From Cystobasidiomycetes sp. EMM_F5 (lineage: Eukaryota), in contig JBPGPT010000011.1 of NCBI GenBank assembly GCA_051047955.1, forward strand, positions 496,001-547,349: a stretch of DNA of 51,349 nucleotides. The letters run 5' to 3'. The notes under the pieces are model-generated. The model saw nothing but the letters and a program-made list of their open reading frames with translations. It was not told where the DNA came from and did no database searches. The first letter of the stretch is position 1. The number at the start of each line of letters is the position of its first letter. Positions 8,761 to 18,823 of this stretch are shown one piece after another. Made by a program: the position numbers and the translations under genes.

Positions 8761-10124
8761 ATGGCTGCCACTGCGTCCACGTCTCGGCTACAGGCATCGG
8801 ATCTCTACGACCCAGCGGGTGCTCCCAGTCTGAGCGATGGCTACCCTGGTCAGAGCCGGTCAGGACGGCAGCACGACGAGCGCAGAGAGCGGAGGCCATC
8901 GCCCAGCTACGATGGGCGCAACGGAGACGCTGGTGGAAACGAGAGAAACAACTGGCGACGACTGACGCCCGAGAGAGGCCTGGAGCCGCAGTCGCAGCAG
9001 CCAGACAGCAATGGCAGGGGATACAATGGAAATGCCGGATACAGACGAGGCGGATACAGTAACGGCGCCGGGAATGCCGACTTTTTTGCGCAGTAGGTGT
9101 CCTATCCCACAGAGCTTTTAAGGCGGGCATCGAGCTCATCTCCCGCTCCTTTAGACGCAGAAATCAACGAGATACAGCAGTCGTGTCGATATGGCCAACC
9201 TCGCCCAGAACGCCAGACAATAGTGACAGTGAGGACGACGACAAGCGAAGGAGGAAGAGAAAGAAGGAAAAGAAGGACCGGTCATCCAAACATTCGAAAT
9301 CCTCAAAACGACGACGGTATTCTTCAGCCTCTGAGGCCGAGTCAGACGACGATGAGAGACGCGATCGCTCACGTCGCAAGTCTGAGAGGGACAGTGAACG
9401 AGACAGAGATTCCAAGCGCAGCAGCCGCCGTCACCGAGGAGATGATTCGGCCAGTGATCACGACAAGAGCGCGAAGCGATCTAGACGAAGCGACTCTCCC
9501 CCGTCATCTGCCATGCATCGCGACAGGGTACACAATGAACAAGAAGACGAATGGACAGAGCGACCGTCCTCTTCAATGATCACGGCAGACAAGCATGCTC
9601 CCCCTGCCGGAGAAGGGAGGTTGGCAGTTGCAGCAGCGCCGGCAGACAGGGTCAAGACCTCTTCTACAGCTATGATAAAGTCATCAGAGAGGCCACAAGC
9701 AGATGATTCGGACGACGACGACGACGATGTCGGACCGAAACCTTTCAAGGAGACCGACGAACAACGAGATGCACGCGAGTACGGAGGTGCTCTACTTCGC
9801 GGAGAAGGAGAAGCCATGGCAGCGTACGTTACAGAAGGCAAGCGTATCCCACGTCGTGGTGAAATCGGTCTGGAATCTACGCAAATTGAAAAGTTTGAAA
9901 GTGCGGGGTACGTCATGTCGGGTTCGCGACATCGACGCATGAATGCAGTGCGTATCCGAAAGGAGAATCAAGTCATTTCGGCGGAAGAGAAGCGAGGCAT
10001 TCTCAAACTCCAGAAGGAAGAGAAGAACAAAAAGGAGGCAATGGTCGTCGGGTCTTTCAAGGAATTGTTTGAACATCGCCTGGAGAGCGAAAAACGTAAC
10101 GCAAAGTATCGAGAGACGGATTAG
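8761..10124 (+). CDS. NKAP: NKAP-family (NF-kB-activating protein / DUF926) splicing-associated protein
   Basis: C-terminal YGGALLRGEGEAMAAYVTEGKRIPRRGEIGL...YVMSGSRHRRMNAVRIRKENQVISAEEKR matches the NKAP C-terminal domain. RS/basic middle region; one intron at 9093-9154. Confidence 0.9.
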
Positions 10125-10374
10125 GTGCTGTCGTATCCTTGTAGCCTTTAATGCTGTACTCATCTCACACACTGAGGCAAAGAGATCAAGTTGCGCTTCA
10201 CCTGCGATTCTGTCAGTCGAGTTGTAATCTCGCGAGCAGGAAGCAGCAGCAGGAAAACAATGAATAACAGTATAGACGCAGTTATTGTTTGGAAGAACAC
10301 GGGTAATAGATTGCGAGGACAATATGCGAGTTAAACTAGGCTAACAGCATGGGTAAATAAAAAGCCACACTGGC

Positions 10375-11540
10375 TTAGACAAGAACAGCAAAGCCCATGG
10401 CAACAGCAGCCATGGAGAGACCGGCTACAGTCGTCTTGGAAGCGCTGTTTGGCTTGACTGCAGCGTCACCGACCGCACCAGATCCAGCAGCGGCGGATGA
10501 GCGACCAGTGGTGCCGTTGGAGAATTCCAAAACGAAAGGACCGCCGACGACGTTCGAATCATTGGTGAAACCTGGCGTGCGTGTAATGAGACCGTAAGCT
10601 GCACCTGTAGAGACGTTGGTTCGGGGAATGGTGCATGAACCATTGTTGAATGGAGCAACAGCTTGAGAGAGTCCGCTAAGGAAAGTGCAGTACAGCTGAC
10701 CAGTACCATTGGTCGCGCTAGCAGGGAGGCTAACAGTGATATTGCTACCAATATTGGCATTGGTGGAGGTCAAGTTGGCAGCGGGGTAAGGCTTGAAAGG
10801 AGGAGCTGAGCCATTAGGGCATGACGCGAAGAAGGGAGCTGCCAAGCTGGTCACTGCAACTGGGTTCAGAGGAGTGTCATACTCGACAAAGGGTGTGGCG
10901 CCGTTGATATAGCGAATGACGGAGGAGTGTCTGGCTTCGGCGGTGAGGATCGAGCCGGCAACAGTAAGGTACTGCTTGTTCTGAATGTACTGAGCGGCAC
11001 CAAGGTAGGCGCTGACTCCAACTCCTTCAAGGATCTGCGACACAGCTAAGAACGAGGCTGCATCCGTGCTGTGGCGACAAATTCCGATTAGTGCAGTCCA
11101 TGATGCCGAAACTTGATGTGGATACTCACTATGGGAAGGTGTAATTGCATGCCGATACTGGCGTGGCACCAGCAGCAGACAAAGCCCCAGTCAGCAGAGT
11201 GACGTGGGAAGCCTCATCGGCGGCGACGACCTGGAGCTGAGAGTAGGTCGTGTTGGGGAAGCCAGTGAATGCCGACGCCGAATTAAACTTGGAGAGGGCC
11301 TGAGAGTAGAATGTGGCTGGTAATTTCGAACGGGGGGTGTTGTGTCAGCCACCGTTGTAGAACAATTTTGAACGACCGTCAGTACTTACCTTCTAGGTGC
11401 TCGAGCACGAGCGCGAAATTAAGGATCGCAGAGTCAGGCAACCCAGTCTGGGTCGGTCCTACTTGACGTTTCTCGACCGCCACTGCAGAGACGCCCAGTG
11501 CGCCAAAGACTGCGCTGAGGAGGATGTCACGTCGAACCAT
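10375..11540 (-). CDS. Rds1-like ferritin-fold (Ferritin_2) secreted protein, probably GPI-anchored
   Basis: Signal peptide MVRRDILLSAVFGALGVSAVAVEKR; DSAILNFALVLEHLEATFY, DEASH, LEGVGVSAYLGAA, AGSILTAEARH; hydrophobic C-terminus (AGLSMAAVAMGFAVLV). Two introns. Confidence 0.85.
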
Positions 11541-12481
11541 TGTGGATGAGTGTGTTGAAGTGTAGGTATGCTACAGGTGACTGATGCAAGACACGACACT
11601 GAACGAGTGTGAGTAGTGAGGGGCTGGATGCGAAGTGGGAGATGCGGAATGGAAAGAAAAGGAAAGGACGAGACGAGACGAAACAAAGTCAGACGATTCT
11701 GCTGTAGGACGATGTTGAGTTGGATCAAGATCGACGGCAGAGGGGGCTGGAAGGAGCAGATAATTAGACTAGACTTTGAGTAGTGCACCTGACTTTTAGG
11801 CGAGGCCCCTCAGCATTCCCTCTGGCTCTGAAGCCGGTGCCCCCTTGAATATGCATTTCTCGTACGAGATCTGCATTGCGTTAGGGTGCAGATCAGCAAA
11901 CTGTGTCTGTCCCGAATTTGTTGATTCTTGTTGTTTTGCTGGAATGCAGCGTCATCATCCCGCCGCGCGTAGCCTGTACCGTAGAACATCGAACGAGGAC
12001 AGAAAGGTCAGTGCGTCTATGCTTGTGCATGGTGAGTACGTTAGTAAGCATGGTCGCTGTCTGAAGTGGTGTTGCAATCCCTTCAGTGCTGCCTTGTGCT
12101 TGCCGAGCTCGCTTCAAACTCGTTGCATGCTGCTGATGCGCACAGAACTCGAGAGACTGCTGAGCCCTATAACTTAGGCTTTCGTATCGATGCGAGTGAC
12201 CAGGTGTCGCAAGCAGCATAGCAAAGTAGTAAATGGTTCAAGGACATCGACCAAGATTTAAGCCCTGCAGATGAGACAAATGATCGATACTGACGGCAGT
12301 CTCCGCATCAGAAGCAGACCAACGTAGAGACTGTTCACACTGAGGGAGATGCATCCAGCACCACACGCAGCATCAGATTATTGCAGAGACCATCAACAGC
12401 GAGACTATGTTACAACCAACATTCAATTCTTCCATCCGAGACTTCACTACTAACAATCCTCGCAGTGCTCACTAAGACGGT

Positions 12482-13548
12482 CTACATAACCTTGCCCAAC
12501 TGAGCTGACTTCATGGCTGCGTGGATCTCGGCGTCGGCGCCTTTTTGTAGGGGTAGGAGGGTTCCACGGACGGTTGCGTGGTTGAGAACGCCTCGCGCAA
12601 CTAGCGCATGCTTCAAAGCGACAGTACCTTCCATGTGCGATCCACGGTGGTACACTGCGGCAGTTACTGGCAGGAGTCGGTCGTGCACCTCGCGCGCCTT
12701 TTTGTAGTCTTGCGCCTTGCCAGCGTTGAGCAACTCGTAGAGCGGCTCTGGAGCAATGCCACCGTAACCGACAAGGAAACCATCGACGTCGAACGAACTG
12801 TGGAGGAGGTACTCGTCGTGGCAGGACAGGCAGTAAATATCGGGTCTCTCGCGGCGGATGACTGGGATTTCTCTATCCCAGCGTCTCATGTTGCGGACAC
12901 CATTCTTCATCGCAAAGACACCTGGCTGAGCGAGGATATCAAGCTGAGTCTGCAGGTCGTAAGTTGCCTTGGTGTTGTCTGGGTATTGGAAGAGGATGAG
13001 AGGAAGTCCGGAAGCCTCGTAGATCTCCTTGTAGCGGACTTGGGGAGCGCCGGCCTGGTAGCCGAAACGGAGCCAGCCGTGAGATGGATACAGGAGACCA
13101 GCAGCAGCGCCGGCTTCCTTGGCTCTGCGAGCTTCAATTCCAGCGACGTAGTTACCCTCGCGAGTGATACCGGCAATGATTGGGATTTTGTTATCAACCG
13201 ATTTGACCCATGCTTTGATAGTTTCAACCTGGATAACACTGCTCAGCATGCAATTTTTTCCATATGTCCGTGTACTCTGCTCACCTGCTCGTCTTCAGTG
13301 AGGAAAGTGCCCTCTCCAGCGTGGCCGAGTACGACAAGGCCCTTCACGCCCTCGACAGTTGCCAACCAGGATCCAATGCGCTGGATAGCTTCATAGTCGA
13401 CGGAGCCGTCTTCATTGAAAGGAGTGACCGGAGCGGGAGTGATGCCCGACATGTCAAAGCCGACTCGGCCTCGAGGATTGTGGAAAGTTGTCAGTCCGTT
13501 GGAAGTCGAAGCAGCGCCGTTGCTGTGTCCGTTGGTGAGTCCGACCAT
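12482..13548 (-). CDS. DapA/N-acetylneuraminate-lyase superfamily (class I aldolase) enzyme, substrate unknown
   Basis: GITPAPVTPFNEDGSVD, VLGHAGEG, IPIIAG and Schiff-base Lys in FAMKNG. One intron (gtgagc...atccag) joins ORFs 13243-13548 and 12482-13249. Confidence 0.9.
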
Positions 13549-13727
13549 ATTGTCTGATTTGCGGAGAAGGTGAGTGGTGTGACTAAGTTATCTGGAAGGC
13601 TGCTTGCGCGAGTTGCAACAAGTGTAGGATGGAGATGTGAAGAGTGAAGCTGAGAGGACGTATGAGTGCTAGCTTCTTATAGCTTCAGCAAAGGCCGGCT
13701 ATCCAGGTTCAAGCGGGTGGCGTTGGA

Positions 13728-13878
13728 CGGATGCATGCTTCCGAGGTTGTCTGCAACCCGAGGTGCGTGCGACCATCCCTGGCGGACAATTCAGAACTCG
13801 GCTGCAGGCTTCCGAGCTGCATGTCGGAACCCTACTGACGTGTCTTGGCCCGCTTTGACAGACGGATGCATGCATCCG
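13728..13878. promoter_or_regulatory. Three CGG-N10-CCG inverted-repeat sites (putative Zn2Cys6 binding sites) in a bidirectional promoter
   Basis: 13728-13743 CGGatgcatgcttCCG; 13799-13814 CGGctgcaggcttCCG; 13863-13878 CGGatgcatgcatCCG (perfect palindrome). All are followed by AG and lie between the divergent aldolase and MFS starts. Confidence 0.75.
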
Positions 13879-14070
13879 AGGTCCCCCCCGCAGGAGTCTC
13901 CAAGAAATCTGTCTGTCTGATCCGCGTTGGGAGTTGACAGCTGCCTCCAACTTGCGGGCTTCACCTTCTCTTTCCTTGAGCTGTCACTATTTCAATCTCT
14001 CCTTTCTACGAGTGAAATACCACTTCCGCAAATTGAAACCCATTCTCTTACCTCCGGCGGGGACTCCACC

Positions 14071-15600
14071 ATGTCCGCACTGATGTCCAAGAATATCGAG
14101 CCAGCACCAGGCGGAGAAGTCGCTTCCTTCGCTGCAGAATCCAAGTCGGAGATACACACGCCAGAAGAGAAGTCCTACCATGAGCAATTTGAAGACGTCG
14201 AGCAGAATCGCCTTCAAGGCCAGCCAGCCGGTAAGACCGATCACTTCGGTACCTCCACGAGCCTGTCGCCAGAGGAGAGGAAGCTCGTCCGCAAGCTCGA
14301 TCTATACATCCTGCCGATGCTCTTCTGCATGTATTACATGAACAAGACCGACCAGAACGCCATCGCGAATGCCAGGCTCAATACCCTAGCCAAGGATCTA
14401 GGCTTGGTTGGCAACGACTTCAACGTCTGTGTTTCTATCCTATACGTCGGCTACACTCTCGTCCAGATTCCATCTAATCTTCTCATGTCGTCGGGCAAAG
14501 TACGTCCTTCCACTTGGATGGCCTGCTGGATGGGTGCGTGGGCCATTGTCTCTGGCGTCACTGCAGCTGTCCAGGATTACAAAGGTCTCTTTGCTGTTCG
14601 ATTCCTGCTTGGCTTTGCAGAAGCTCCATTCTATCCAGGCGCCATTTACCTGCTTTCGCTCTTCTACACTCGCCGAGAGATTGCGACTCGTGTCAGCATC
14701 CTCTACTCTGCCAACATCTTCGCAACAGCCTTTGCTGGTCTGATTTCGGCGGCGGTTTTTGGCACACTCGATAAGAAGTACGGTATTGCTGGATGGCGAT
14801 GGCTCTTCATCATTCTCGGCGTTGTCACATTCGTCCTGGCCGCCATCTCATTCTTCATTCTCCCCGACCACCCTGCTACGACTAGATGGCTTACACCAGA
14901 GGAGCGTAAGCTCGCCAAAGAGCGCATGGACCGCGACACCGTCGGCCTGCAACAGAGCATGGGAGCCATAGCTGGCTTCAAGCAGGCGATTGGCGACAAG
15001 CGATTGTACCTGTTTGTGCTCCTGCAGAATCTCCACCTGGCAGCTTGCGGGTTCAACAGCTTCTTCCCAACTGTCGTCCAGACACTCGGATACTCGACTA
15101 CCATTACCCTCGTTCTTACGTGCCCGCCGTACCTGGTTGCTGGTCTGTTTGCAGTCTTCCTTGGCTGGTCGTCTGGACGCCGCAACGAAAAGACATGGCA
15201 CATCACTTTTGGCATGATTGTCGCCGTCATTGGATTCGTCATGGCTGCCTCTTCCCTCCAGACGGGTGTACGCTTCGTGTCCCTCTTCTTCTTTGCGACA
15301 GGTGCCTACTCTGCCAACTCCATCATCATCGGATGGGTCTCTGCGACTTGCGGCCAGACACCAGAAAAGAAGGCAGCGTCTCTGTCCATCATGAACTGCA
15401 TTTCCATGGCGTCCTTCATATACACACCCTATCTCTACCCCGCAAGTGATGGTCCTCGATACCTGATGGCCATGTCTGCCAATGCAGCCTTCTCTTTGGG
15501 TGTCATTATCTGCGCGGTAGCCATGCGCTTCTGGCTGCAAGGCGTCAATCGCAAGATCCGTCAACAAAATCAAGACGTCCGTCTTCTGTACGCGTATTAG
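14071..15600 (+). CDS. MFS transporter, Dal5/Tna1 (allantoate/nicotinate, anion:cation symporter) family, intronless
   Basis: ERKLVRKLDLYILP, QIPSNLLM, RFLLGFAEAPFYPGAIYLLSLFYTRREIATR, GWRWLFII, LPDHPATTRWLT; about 12 hydrophobic segments. ATG at 14071 in a CCACCATG context. Confidence 0.93.
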   Translation: MSALMSKNIEPAPGGEVASFAAESKSEIHTPEEKSYHEQFEDVEQNRLQGQPAGKTDHFGTSTSLSPEERKLVRKLDLYILPMLFCMYYMNKTDQNAIANARLNTLAKDLGLVGNDFNVCVSILYVGYTLVQIPSNLLMSSGKVRPSTWMACWMGAWAIVSGVTAAVQDYKGLFAVRFLLGFAEAPFYPGAIYLLSLFYTRREIATRVSILYSANIFATAFAGLISAAVFGTLDKKYGIAGWRWLFIILGVVTFVLAAISFFILPDHPATTRWLTPEERKLAKERMDRDTVGLQQSMGAIAGFKQAIGDKRLYLFVLLQNLHLAACGFNSFFPTVVQTLGYSTTITLVLTCPPYLVAGLFAVFLGWSSGRRNEKTWHITFGMIVAVIGFVMAASSLQTGVRFVSLFFFATGAYSANSIIIGWVSATCGQTPEKKAASLSIMNCISMASFIYTPYLYPASDGPRYLMAMSANAAFSLGVIICAVAMRFWLQGVNRKIRQQNQDVRLLYAY

Positions 15601-15916: not shown

Positions 15917-18823
15917 ATGGCTTCTGGCTGGTCGGCCGACCTTCTTCTAAACCATAACCGGCAGATCTGTCAGTAGAGGGCGTAGCCAGAGCATCTGCCT
16001 TATGACTGGCATCGTGGTATCGACTAATGGGCTTTCCATTCAGTTCTTGGGCTTCCCGAAGTCGAATCGGAAGACAGCCAAGCTGGACCATCGGGTACAC
16101 CTGATGAGAATGGAGAGCGGGGAGCATTACCTTGTGAGTATTCGGTTCGCTCCCTTTTATTTGCACGGCTGAGCGAAAGAAACTCGCGCTGATTGGAAGT
16201 GTCCGCCCCCACTGCTTCCCCTCCTTGCTCTGTCGGCACATCGGCAGCCGGTATTGACAAGAAATTGAAACGCAGAGTACCAGACTCTGCGCGTCAGCGA
16301 GCTGCTGCTGCTTGTAACAGATGCAAGGCTCGCAAGGTGAGATGCATAAGAAATCTAGGATCCGTTGCTTCGGATCCGTGCGCCGCCTGCGCGCAACTCG
16401 GTGTATCATGCGAGGCATCCGTCAAGAAGCCAAAGCGGAACTATGCTGTTGGCGATCACTTGAGCGCCAGATACAGAGCTCTCGACGAGCTGATCAGAGG
16501 CCTCTGTCCAGGCGAGTCTGTCGATGATCTGTCTGATATTATCGCTCTCGCGTCAAGAAAGGGAATAGGCATTACCGTACAGGAAGAGAAATTTGACAAA
16601 GCCTTCGACCCCTTTCGCCCGCCTCACTCTTCCCAGCCAAACGTACTCACATTCCCATCAAATCACACCTCGCCGTCTGATCCGGCTTTTGCGCTCAAAG
16701 TCCCAGAAGGACGTCTGATCCCTGCAAGCACCGGGGGCTATCATTATGTCGGCCCATCCTCTTCATACATGTTTGCAAATACTATAAGATATCTCGTTGC
16801 CAAATCGCAGATCCATACACCTACCGATAGCTGGTCGGGATTGTGGAGGCAAATCAGGGCTGCAGAATTCACAAGCCCTAACCGAACGACAGCTCTTGAT
16901 GCTCGAATTCAAGGGCACCCTATGACTAAAGCTGCGGATGAAGACAATGCAGATACAAGTCCCGCTGCAATTGCCAGCCCGCAACATAGCGAGAGAAGCG
17001 GCGCCACGATCACAAATTTGCCGGTACCGCACAATCAGTCATGGACCGTCTTTTTGCCAAGCAGAGATGTCGCAGACCGGCTCGTTAAGGCGTTCTTTGC
17101 CCGTGTGCACCCCAACATGCCAATCTTTCATCGCGGAGCCTTCTTCACAAAATACGAGACTCTATGGTCGGCAGCAGCTCTGACTCCGCGCAGTCTAGAT
17201 AACGTTCCGATTCCAGACAGAGGTTGGCTCTGTAGCTTGTTCCTGTGCTTTGTCCACGGTGCACATTCGCTCGAGAGGGATGGCTTAGCCGATGCGTCTG
17301 GCATTCAAGAACGTTATCTCGCCATCATAGTTCGACACGGCCTGCAACGCATGATTATGACGCCGACACTTCAGAACGTACAGGCGCTCATGCTCCTCTC
17401 GCTATATCAGCATAACTCTGGCGAAAGAAATACCGCATGGATGGTATTGGGTCATGCAGCCCGAACGGCAATAGCTCTCGGTATACAACGCGACGGCGAG
17501 AATGGAAATTTTGATCCGGTAGAGCGGAATGTTCGTCGTATGGTGTGGTGGCACCTGCATCTTTTTGAGCAGAATCTTTGTTCAATTCTCGGCAGGCCAA
17601 CGGCCACCAATCTGTTGGAAGTCAGTGCTACGCTACCCGACGAAGAAGTTATCGATGGCAGCGATCTTCCACCGTCGTTTTTGACGTACGCTGTATCGCT
17701 CAGCTGTATAGCTGCGCGCATCAAGCGTTTTATCGGTGCGGTGTCAATCGATTTTGACAAGCCTACCGAGCTCGAGCATGCGTCCCGCTTAGCGCACCAG
17801 ATTGATCAGCAGCTACATCAGTGGCTGGAAGATCTGCCTCCACACCTACAAGTCGATCAATATTTTGCGGTGCCAAAACATCAGCGGGCAGTCCTGCTAC
17901 TTCACGTTCAACACAACTACCTACGGTCATGCCTGGGCAGACCTTATCTACTGTCGTACATCGACTGGCAGTTGAATCCGCAGACGGAGCCTATGCCACC
18001 CTCCATCGCCATGTTTGCCGAGACGTGTCTTACTGGATCCGAAATTGTCATAGAGTATCTCCTCGCGCTTGGCCGTGCCAATTTGCTCGAGGGTGAAGTT
18101 TGGTACGACTTCTTTTACGCTCAGCACGCCGCCTTGATATTGTCTTTGCCATTCCTGCCTCAAGCAGCCAATCCACGGGATGAAACTCCAGCTGCGTACA
18201 CAGAGTCTCCGCAAGAGAAGGCGCGAAAAGCTGCGGTATACAACATTCTCAGCCTTGCCCAATCTACCCGTCTAGCTCCTACATACCGTATTCTCGTTCA
18301 CGTCGCTATACAATTTGCAAGAATAGTCGGCACCTGGCCGGAAAGCGTCGGCGAAGCGGAAGATAATGTCTTTCCCCCGTACAGCTCGACTTCGCCGTTG
18401 TCTCAGACCTCTGCACCGACATTCGCCTTTCACGAGCCATCGACCAACGTGGGCGGTACTCAATCTGCGACCGTGCAGCTGGCAGATGCGACGGCTCAGC
18501 CTGAGAAATCTGCTCAACCGCTCTCCTTCTCAGACTTTACGGGTCCGGATCTCTGGTCTGGCCTTCCTTCTCTGACCTTTCCCAACGATCCTATACAATC
18601 TGATCACGATTTCACGTCCAATACAGCTGGGCAGTCGGCCTTCTCCTTTGACCAGTTCTTCAATTTCGGGACGCATACTGCCAGTTCAGGTATGCAAAGT
18701 CGTCGAGGATCGCTGTCGTTTCCGCTCGTCGGGCAGGGCGATGCATATCAGAATACAGACTTCAATACTGGCCAGTCGAATACCGATACACTCTTGTGGG
18801 ATCTGTTCAACCCGCGAGCGTAG
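15917..18823 (+). CDS. Zn2Cys6 (Gal4-type) transcription factor with fungal TF middle-homology domain
   Basis: CNRCKARKVRC-x11-CAACAQLGVSC binuclear cluster; LVKAFFARVHPNMPIFHRGAF; AWMVLGHAARTAIALGIQRDG...ERNVRRMVWW. The long ORF lacks an early ATG; two predicted 5' introns (gtcagt...cattcag and gtgagt...tggaag) link it in frame to ATG 15917, so the start is less certain. Confidence 0.9.

Follow-up and report, generated by a model that had tools for sequence, protein, structure and literature searches.

Three conserved CGG-N10-CCG palindromes between divergent lyase and permease genes as probable sites of a linked Zn2Cys6 regulator in a cystobasidiomycete fungus

The DNA analysed, hereafter the window, is a stretch of 51,349 nucleotides from Cystobasidiomycetes sp. 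EMM_F5. Within it, a lyase gene and a permease gene are transcribed divergently from a shared promoter of 522 bp (13549..14070), measured between the two start codons. The minus-strand gene (12482..13548) encodes a lyase of the DapA/DHDPS family and is a probable target gene of the sites described below. Pfam PF00701 was matched on both of its exons, exon 1 at 13548..13285 and exon 2 at 13228..12482; the intron between them (13284..13229, minus strand) is 56 nt long with GT..AG borders, the splice having been read from the sequence. The other probable target gene (14071..15600, plus strand) is a single ORF of 509 aa that matches Pfam MFS_1 and encodes a permease of the anion:cation symporter type. 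TIGR00893, the model of the anion:cation symporter subfamily, was the best NCBIfam match for this permease, with a score below the model cut-off. The ORF of a Zn2Cys6 regulator (16193..18823, plus strand) lies 3' of the permease gene and carries a Zn_clus domain, a Gal4-like linker and helix, a fungal_trans domain and a C-terminal W-DFF motif. The outer neighbours are of housekeeping types (NKAP, pescadillo, UTP23 and ATG14), and we therefore regard the unit as consisting of three genes. No further pathway gene beside the unit was common to the window and to L002 and L005, two of the other loci described below. The nearest protein relatives of the window come from basidiomycete yeasts, e.g., Kwoniella, Cryptococcus, Papiliotrema and Meredithblackwellia, and in Kwoniella sp. 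B9012 the trio occupies the consecutive locus tags V866_005722/23/24. Paired lyase and permease genes also occur in Cryptococcus and in ascomycetes.

Three CGG-N10-CCG palindromes occupy the middle of the promoter, between the lyase and the permease genes. Site 1 (CGGATGCATGCTTCCG, 13728-13743) lies approximately 180 bp ahead of the lyase start codon (13548, minus strand), site 2 (CGGCTGCAGGCTTCCG) at 13799-13814, and site 3 (CGGATGCATGCATCCG, 13863-13878) approximately 190 bp ahead of the permease start codon (14071). A sequence-only reading of this DNA had reported the pattern at 13728, 13799 and 13863, and both direct reading and a pattern search located it at exactly these positions. The 18-nt consensus proposed in that reading matched all three sites with 0 mismatches. 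Site 3 equals its own reverse complement and is thus a perfect 16-bp palindrome, as had been claimed. A repeat search independently recovered the sites as a 22-nt family at 13726-13747, 13797-13818 (77%) and 13861-13882 (95%, i.e., 21/22), which also bears out the claimed match of 21 of 22 nt between sites 1 and 3. When inverted CGG-Nx-CCG pairs were scanned for x from 0 to 20 in the 522-bp promoter, x = 10 was the only spacing found.

The promoter also holds two everted CCG-N10-CGG pairs, at 13812-13827 and 13850-13865. The former had been pointed out in the sequence-only reading and is indeed present. Since L002 and L004 lack such pairs altogether, the everted pair was rejected as a functional element. 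The CGG of the pair at 13850-13865 is also part of site 3.

We compared the frequency of these patterns with chance expectation. The plain CGG-N10-CCG pattern is not enriched: it occurs 7 times in the window where 9.61 would be expected, and 7 or more were also obtained in 88 of 100 shuffles. The clustering of three such patterns inside 151 bp was reproduced by only 2 of 500 dinucleotide shuffles. In addition, the consensus from the sequence-only reading, at up to 3 mismatches, gave 7 matches in the window against 0.39 expected, a number reached by none of 100 shuffles; four of the seven are the minus-strand readings of the three sites and one weak match at 8785. The unusual features are therefore the presence of three sites within 151 bp and the likeness of their spacers, not the frequency of CGG-N10-CCG.

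To obtain related loci, JGI metagenome contigs were searched with an alignment of 22 relatives of the regulator, which yielded 12 loci. In L002, the regulator is 46% identical to that of the window and the order is regulator, permease (minus strand), lyase (plus strand); the intergenic region between permease and lyase contains three sites, CGGATGCAAGCAGCCG, CGGATGCATGCTTCCG and CGGAACCATGCATCCG. In L003 and L004 (regulators 50% and 43% identical, respectively), the order is regulator, lyase (minus strand), permease (plus strand), and the intergenic region carries CGGAAGCATGCTGCCG, CGGAAGCATGCATCCG and the degenerate TGGAAGCATGCACCCG. The promoters of L003 and L004 are identical over the 606 bases printed, and the two were counted as one lineage. 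L001 is a contig of 4.7 kb on which the regulator (48% identical) alone was recognised; its single site, CGGAAGCAAGCATCCG, precedes the regulator start codon by 114 bp. The L001 site lies at 1375-1390 of the contig, which has no recognisable lyase or permease gene. The motif thus accompanies regulators of 43-50% identity in all four usable loci (L001, L002, L003 and L004, the last two being one lineage), and the footprint rests on three or four independent lineages. The sequence-only reading had named absence of the sites from relatives with the cluster as a refutation of its proposal. The proposal passed this test: the two independent relatives with the cluster (L002 and L003/L004) again hold three sites each, in the same intergenic region. 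The order of lyase (D), permease (M) and regulator (T) is D-M-T in the window, T-M-D in L002 and T-D-M in L003/L004. Despite this rearrangement, the divergent D/M pair is intact in each of them.

We next quantified this conservation with a symmetrised matrix built from the three window sites alone, on which sites 1, 2 and 3 score 24.3, 20.6 and 25.2 bits; site 2 is the furthest of the three from the consensus. The matrix was applied to 11 other loci, 112,665 bases in all, from which L004 was omitted because its promoter is identical to that of L003 over the 606 bases printed. At a threshold of at least 17 bits, 7 matches were obtained, whereas 100 shuffles gave 0.15 on average and never more than 2. 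L002 and L003 account for three matches each, all between the lyase and permease genes, and the remaining one precedes the regulator gene of L001. No other match of at least 17 bits was found anywhere in 164 kb, including L007, L009 and L010 (approximately 20 kb each; distant paralogous regulators). Lower-scoring matches at window positions 8785 (14.0 bits) and 41204 (12.4 bits), in L009 (14.2 bits) and in L005 (13.3 bits) were taken as chance. The matrix scan found no site upstream of the regulator gene of the window. Autoregulation, as suggested by L001, therefore does not hold generally and may operate in some lineages only.

A word test that presupposes no motif gave a consistent result. 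The promoters of the window, L002 and L004 have 22 8-mers in common, whereas 0.26 would be expected and none of 500 shuffles gave more than 6; 20 of the 22 tile the motif. Outside the motif, the promoters could not be aligned, except for a TATA-like word common to L002 and L004. The preservation of the palindromes in L002 and L003/L004, where the rest of the promoter is not shared, supports the earlier proposal that they are binding sites of the adjacent regulator and drive both divergent genes. The only non-motif 8-mer common to the three promoters is the weak word GGCTGCTT. In L002 it falls inside a site, and in the window, at 13594-13612, it lies within AGGCTGCTTGCGCGAG, which resembles a decayed site.

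The 10 sites of the four lineages provide 20 half-sites, in which the most frequent base occurs at the frequencies C19 G20 G20 A16 W20 G19 C20 A17, giving the half-site consensus CGGAWGCA. Positions 6 and 7 (GC; 19/20 and 20/20) are fixed as firmly as the CGG triplet, which starts 19 of the 20 half-sites. The spacer is therefore conserved as strongly as the CGG. The 'CCGAG' tail of the earlier consensus is specific to the window. The trailing 'AG' occurs in the window only, the flanks of the other lineages being CCGG, CCGC and CCGT; since the flanks in L001, L002 and L003 differ, the 'CCGAG' extension was rejected as a general consensus. A single spacer length was found, all matrix matches in L001, L002 and L003 being in the 16-bp frame, which is the only frame the matrix detects.

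The regulator was then examined as the candidate binding protein. Its six cysteines are spaced C-x2-C-x6-C-x11-C-x2-C-x6-C, with a Zn2Cys6 loop 2 residues longer than that of most relatives. The Pfam scores were 23.1 bits for Zn_clus (cut-off 21) and 69.8 bits for Fungal_trans; NCBIfam gave no match, and the full-length protein had 0 matches in a PDB sequence search. With the 110-aa DNA-binding region as the query, the PDB search returned Ppr1 (E 0.01), Gal4 (0.066 and 0.11) and Leu3 (0.12 and 0.46). The alignments to Gal4 and Ppr1 continue past the zinc cluster through the linker and the next helix, and the CGG-contacting Lys of Gal4 pairs with a Lys in the window regulator. The score of a predicted complex of two DNA-binding regions with zinc was not specific against one control. 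At the other end of the protein, the C-terminus (window 18700-18823) has the conserved W-DFF, in which, in the alignment of relatives, F870 is invariant and D868 nearly so. This motif fits an activator and is likely to be an activation tail.

The true start of the regulator is uncertain. No in-frame ATG lies ahead of the zinc cluster in window 16100-16210. A database copy of the protein (P0002) starts with MS- and enters the regulator frame near 16205, just after an AG at approximately 16201. A short upstream exon is therefore suggested, with the start codon either split by a short intron or lying 5' of it.

The DNA sequences recognised by proteins of this class have well-described features. 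Excerpts of PMC6265462 state that Zn2Cys6 proteins bind paired CGG triplets as coiled-coil homodimers, and that Put3 has His at the CGG-contacting position, where Ppr1, Hap1, Leu3 and AlcR have Lys. The spacing is strict, 11 bp for Gal4 and 6 bp for Ppr1, in the excerpts of PMC10250231, which also indicate that mere CGG density can suffice for the occupancy of a promoter by a zinc-cluster protein. For Put3, the site is CGG(N10)CCG and the protein contacts the spacer too (PMC5729217, in excerpt). The spacings cited in the sequence-only reading (Gal4 N11, Put3 N10 and Ppr1 N6) agree with these sources as far as the excerpts go (PMC10250231 for Gal4 and Ppr1, PMC5729217 for Put3). The following features of a Gal4-type site were observed at the locus: inverted CGG triplets (two in each of the 3 window sites), a fixed spacing, and a linked six-Cys protein with a linker and a helix.

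In spacing and the reading of the spacer, the closest analogue is Put3 of Saccharomyces cerevisiae. The proline-utilisation promoters bound by Put3 likewise carry inverted CGG triplets 10 bp apart, and the spacer contacts described for Put3 would fit the conserved spacer of the window sites (both from excerpts of PMC5729217). However, Put3 has His at the CGG contact (PMC6265462, excerpt) and the window regulator has Lys. Furthermore, Put3 controls proline-catabolic genes, whereas the sites here are flanked by a DHDPS-family lyase gene and an MFS permease gene in the window, L002 and L004. The PDB search with the DNA-binding region, carried out up to E = 10, returned Ppr1, Gal4 and Leu3 only and no Put3 chain. 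Entries for the Put3 DNA-binding domain exist in the PDB. Orthology between the regulator and Put3 is therefore not supported: in the PDB search the DNA-binding region does not resemble that of Put3, Lys takes the place of His at the contact, the flanking genes are not those of proline catabolism, and the N10 site alone fits. Among the matches listed, 9 of 51 relatives of the regulator bear the JGI name 'proline utilization trans-activator'; such labels are automatic names and do not support orthology to Put3.

In layout, the closest analogue is the GAL1-GAL10 promoter, where several inverted-CGG palindromes lie centrally between two divergent catabolic genes, as they do in the window. The alignment of the window protein to Gal4 spans the zinc cluster, the linker and the dimerisation helix, and the excerpts of PMC10250231 describe a strict spacing for Gal4. 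The two systems differ in that spacing, 11 bp for Gal4 and 10 bp here, and the window protein has a 3-residue gap before the helix in the alignment. They also differ in that the inner 10 bp are strongly conserved and the regulator gene is linked to its targets in the window.

Linkage of this kind is familiar from other fungal systems. The qa/qut, prn and alc clusters are catabolic gene clusters that encode pathway-specific Zn2Cys6 activators within the cluster. They likewise have a regulator gene beside permease and enzyme genes, with sites in a shared divergent promoter. To our knowledge, the known fungal cluster activators do not include this regulator family, nor is its 16-bp site or its substrate one of theirs. 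A literature search of article texts found nothing on the regulator family, the 16-bp site or the substrate, and the only paper in it containing 'CGG-N10-CCG' concerns AtrR, which is unrelated. A zinc-cluster dimer on inverted CGG triplets is an ordinary, textbook kind of regulation.

Considering these results together, we think it likely that a pathway-specific Zn2Cys6 regulator, most probably the product of the gene 2.3 kb away, uses the three palindromes as upstream activating sites. Linkage and co-occurrence point to the neighbouring regulator as the binder. Its binding is predicted because the linkage survives rearrangement, because the motif co-occurs with close relatives of the protein and is restricted to this promoter in 164 kb, and because published rules of spacing apply. 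We infer that the protein would act as a homodimer, by activation rather than repression, and in response to an inducer. In the proposed mechanism, one homodimer of the neighbouring regulator would bind each palindrome, and each zinc cluster would read one terminal CGG. The linker and the helix would set the 10-bp spacing and would probably read the conserved inner bases too. Dimers bound in the middle of the promoter would switch on both divergent genes, one for an atypical DapA-like lyase and the other for an organic-anion permease. An organic acid, sensed by the middle domain of the regulator, would presumably be the trigger.

Other explanations of the sites were weighed against this one. 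The palindromes could be real, conserved zinc-cluster sites and yet belong to another, unlinked Zn2Cys6 protein, in which case the neighbour would act elsewhere or through other sequences. Fungal genomes encode many Zn2Cys6 proteins that read CGG pairs (excerpts of PMC6265462 and PMC10250231), and L005 keeps a regulator beside a lyase gene without the motif. Moreover, the promoter contains 21 CGG/CCG triplets in 522 bp, and since CGG density can suffice for occupancy (PMC10250231, excerpt), other members of the family could therefore bind there. Against a separate binder, however, stand the company the motif keeps with regulators of 43-50% identity in each of the four usable loci (L003 and L004 as one lineage), the linkage of the three genes through rearrangements, and L001, where the motif is directly upstream of the regulator gene and neither target gene is on the contig. 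We consider an unlinked binder unlikely. It is also conceivable that a protein of another class reads the GCATGC core, with the flanking CGG/CCG being secondary. The invariance of GC at half-site positions 6 and 7 (19/20 and 20/20, like the CGG) would agree with this, and ATGCAT-type cores are bound by other classes of fungal factors. Nevertheless, a core-reading protein would leave the CGG of 19 of the 20 half-sites, always at a 10-bp spacing, to be explained, as well as the lack of any other inverted CGG spacing from 0 to 20 in the window promoter and the linked Zn2Cys6 gene in every lineage. Furthermore, a zinc-cluster dimer can read the spacer itself, as described for Put3 in the excerpts of PMC5729217. 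Reading of the core by another class of protein therefore appears very improbable.

A neutral origin, by local duplication of a 22-nt segment or as a chance palindrome with no regulatory role, is the least credible of the explanations, and we give it almost no weight. It draws on the match of 21/22 nt between sites 1 and 3, which extends into flanks that other lineages do not conserve and suggests a recent event of duplication or conversion in this promoter. Such an event, however, would not account for the recurrence of the 16-nt core in the promoters of L002 and L003/L004, in which nothing else aligns and from which the excess of shared 8-mers (22 against 0.26 expected) derives, or for the 7 matrix matches against 0.15 expected. 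A very close kinship of the metagenomic loci is argued against by the regulator identities of 46-50%.

The most distant locus, L005, is a negative case. Its regulator gene (37% identity to that of the window) immediately precedes a gene for a lyase orthologue of 66% identity, and a different MFS gene lies beyond. Neither the pattern search nor the matrix scan found an N10 site in the regulator-lyase intergenic region, and the sole matrix match in L005, the one of 13.3 bits, is inside the regulator ORF. The intergenic region (12265-12930) instead holds one palindrome with an N9 spacer, CTCGG-CATGGGAAT-CCGAG, at approximately 12574-12590. In the L005 regulator (region 9980-10420), the linker from the last Cys to the RY..LD helix is one residue shorter than that of the window protein. 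Linker length and site spacing may thus co-vary, a lead provided by this single locus.

The lyase, product of one of the two probable target genes, was compared more widely. Its orthologues are 77-89% identical across Dikarya, in basidiomycetes and ascomycetes. Exon 2 is 78% identical over 245 aa to the product of a gene in a rare enterobacterial island, which a DNA search found in 16 of 5426 E. coli genomes and also on plasmids, e.g., from Rahnella. The island contains genes for a LacI-type regulator, an MFS protein, a porin, an FAH-family enzyme and a C4-dicarboxylate-type (Dcu-type) transporter. It follows the same logic as the fungal unit, with one regulator, uptake genes and a DapA-like lyase. 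The regulator, however, is of the LacI type in the bacterial island and of the Zn2Cys6 class in the fungus, and the FAH-family gene of the island has no counterpart next to the fungal unit. The fungal permease had no match in the bacterial loci by tblastn at E<=1e-3.

We also asked what the lyase itself might be. Against TIGR00674, exon 2 scored 58.3 bits, the cut-off being 206. When the orthologue P0057 (85% identical) was aligned to DapA chains, GHAGE stood against GTsGE and LFQYP against LYNVP, and the Schiff-base Lys was kept. The window lyase has the same motifs as P0057, with GHAGEG where DapA has a GTTGES-type sequence. Identification of the lyase as DapA (4-hydroxy-tetrahydrodipicolinate synthase) is not supported, as the score is far below the cut-off and the catalytic Thr and Tyr are not kept in the one alignment made. 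A search of article texts for a function of the lyase found none; a single Trichoderma mention was a table row.

A broader reading of the locus, which we regard as possible but doubtful, is that the trio is a eukaryotic control shell around an orphan lyase that is hyperconserved across kingdoms (approximately 78% between the fungus and enterobacteria). A LacI-type repressor would have been replaced by a Zn2Cys6 activator that reads all 16 bp (CGGAWGCA twice), combining a Put3-like reading of the spacer with a Gal4-type Lys, and the spacing may track linker length, as L005 hints. If this is true, the regulator and its sites would be a direct genetic handle on the substrate of the lyase and a natural series for the evolution of spacing specificity.

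The lyase-permease-regulator unit is small and conserved across basidiomycete yeasts, and it offers a precise, testable code: a 16-bp palindrome in three copies and one candidate regulator. A reporter placed on the sites, or over-expression of the regulator, would provide a practical screen for the inducer and thereby a way to assign a function to the lyase. The main value of the finding would be this handle on an orphan, uncharacterised lyase whose conservation between bacteria and fungi is unusual.
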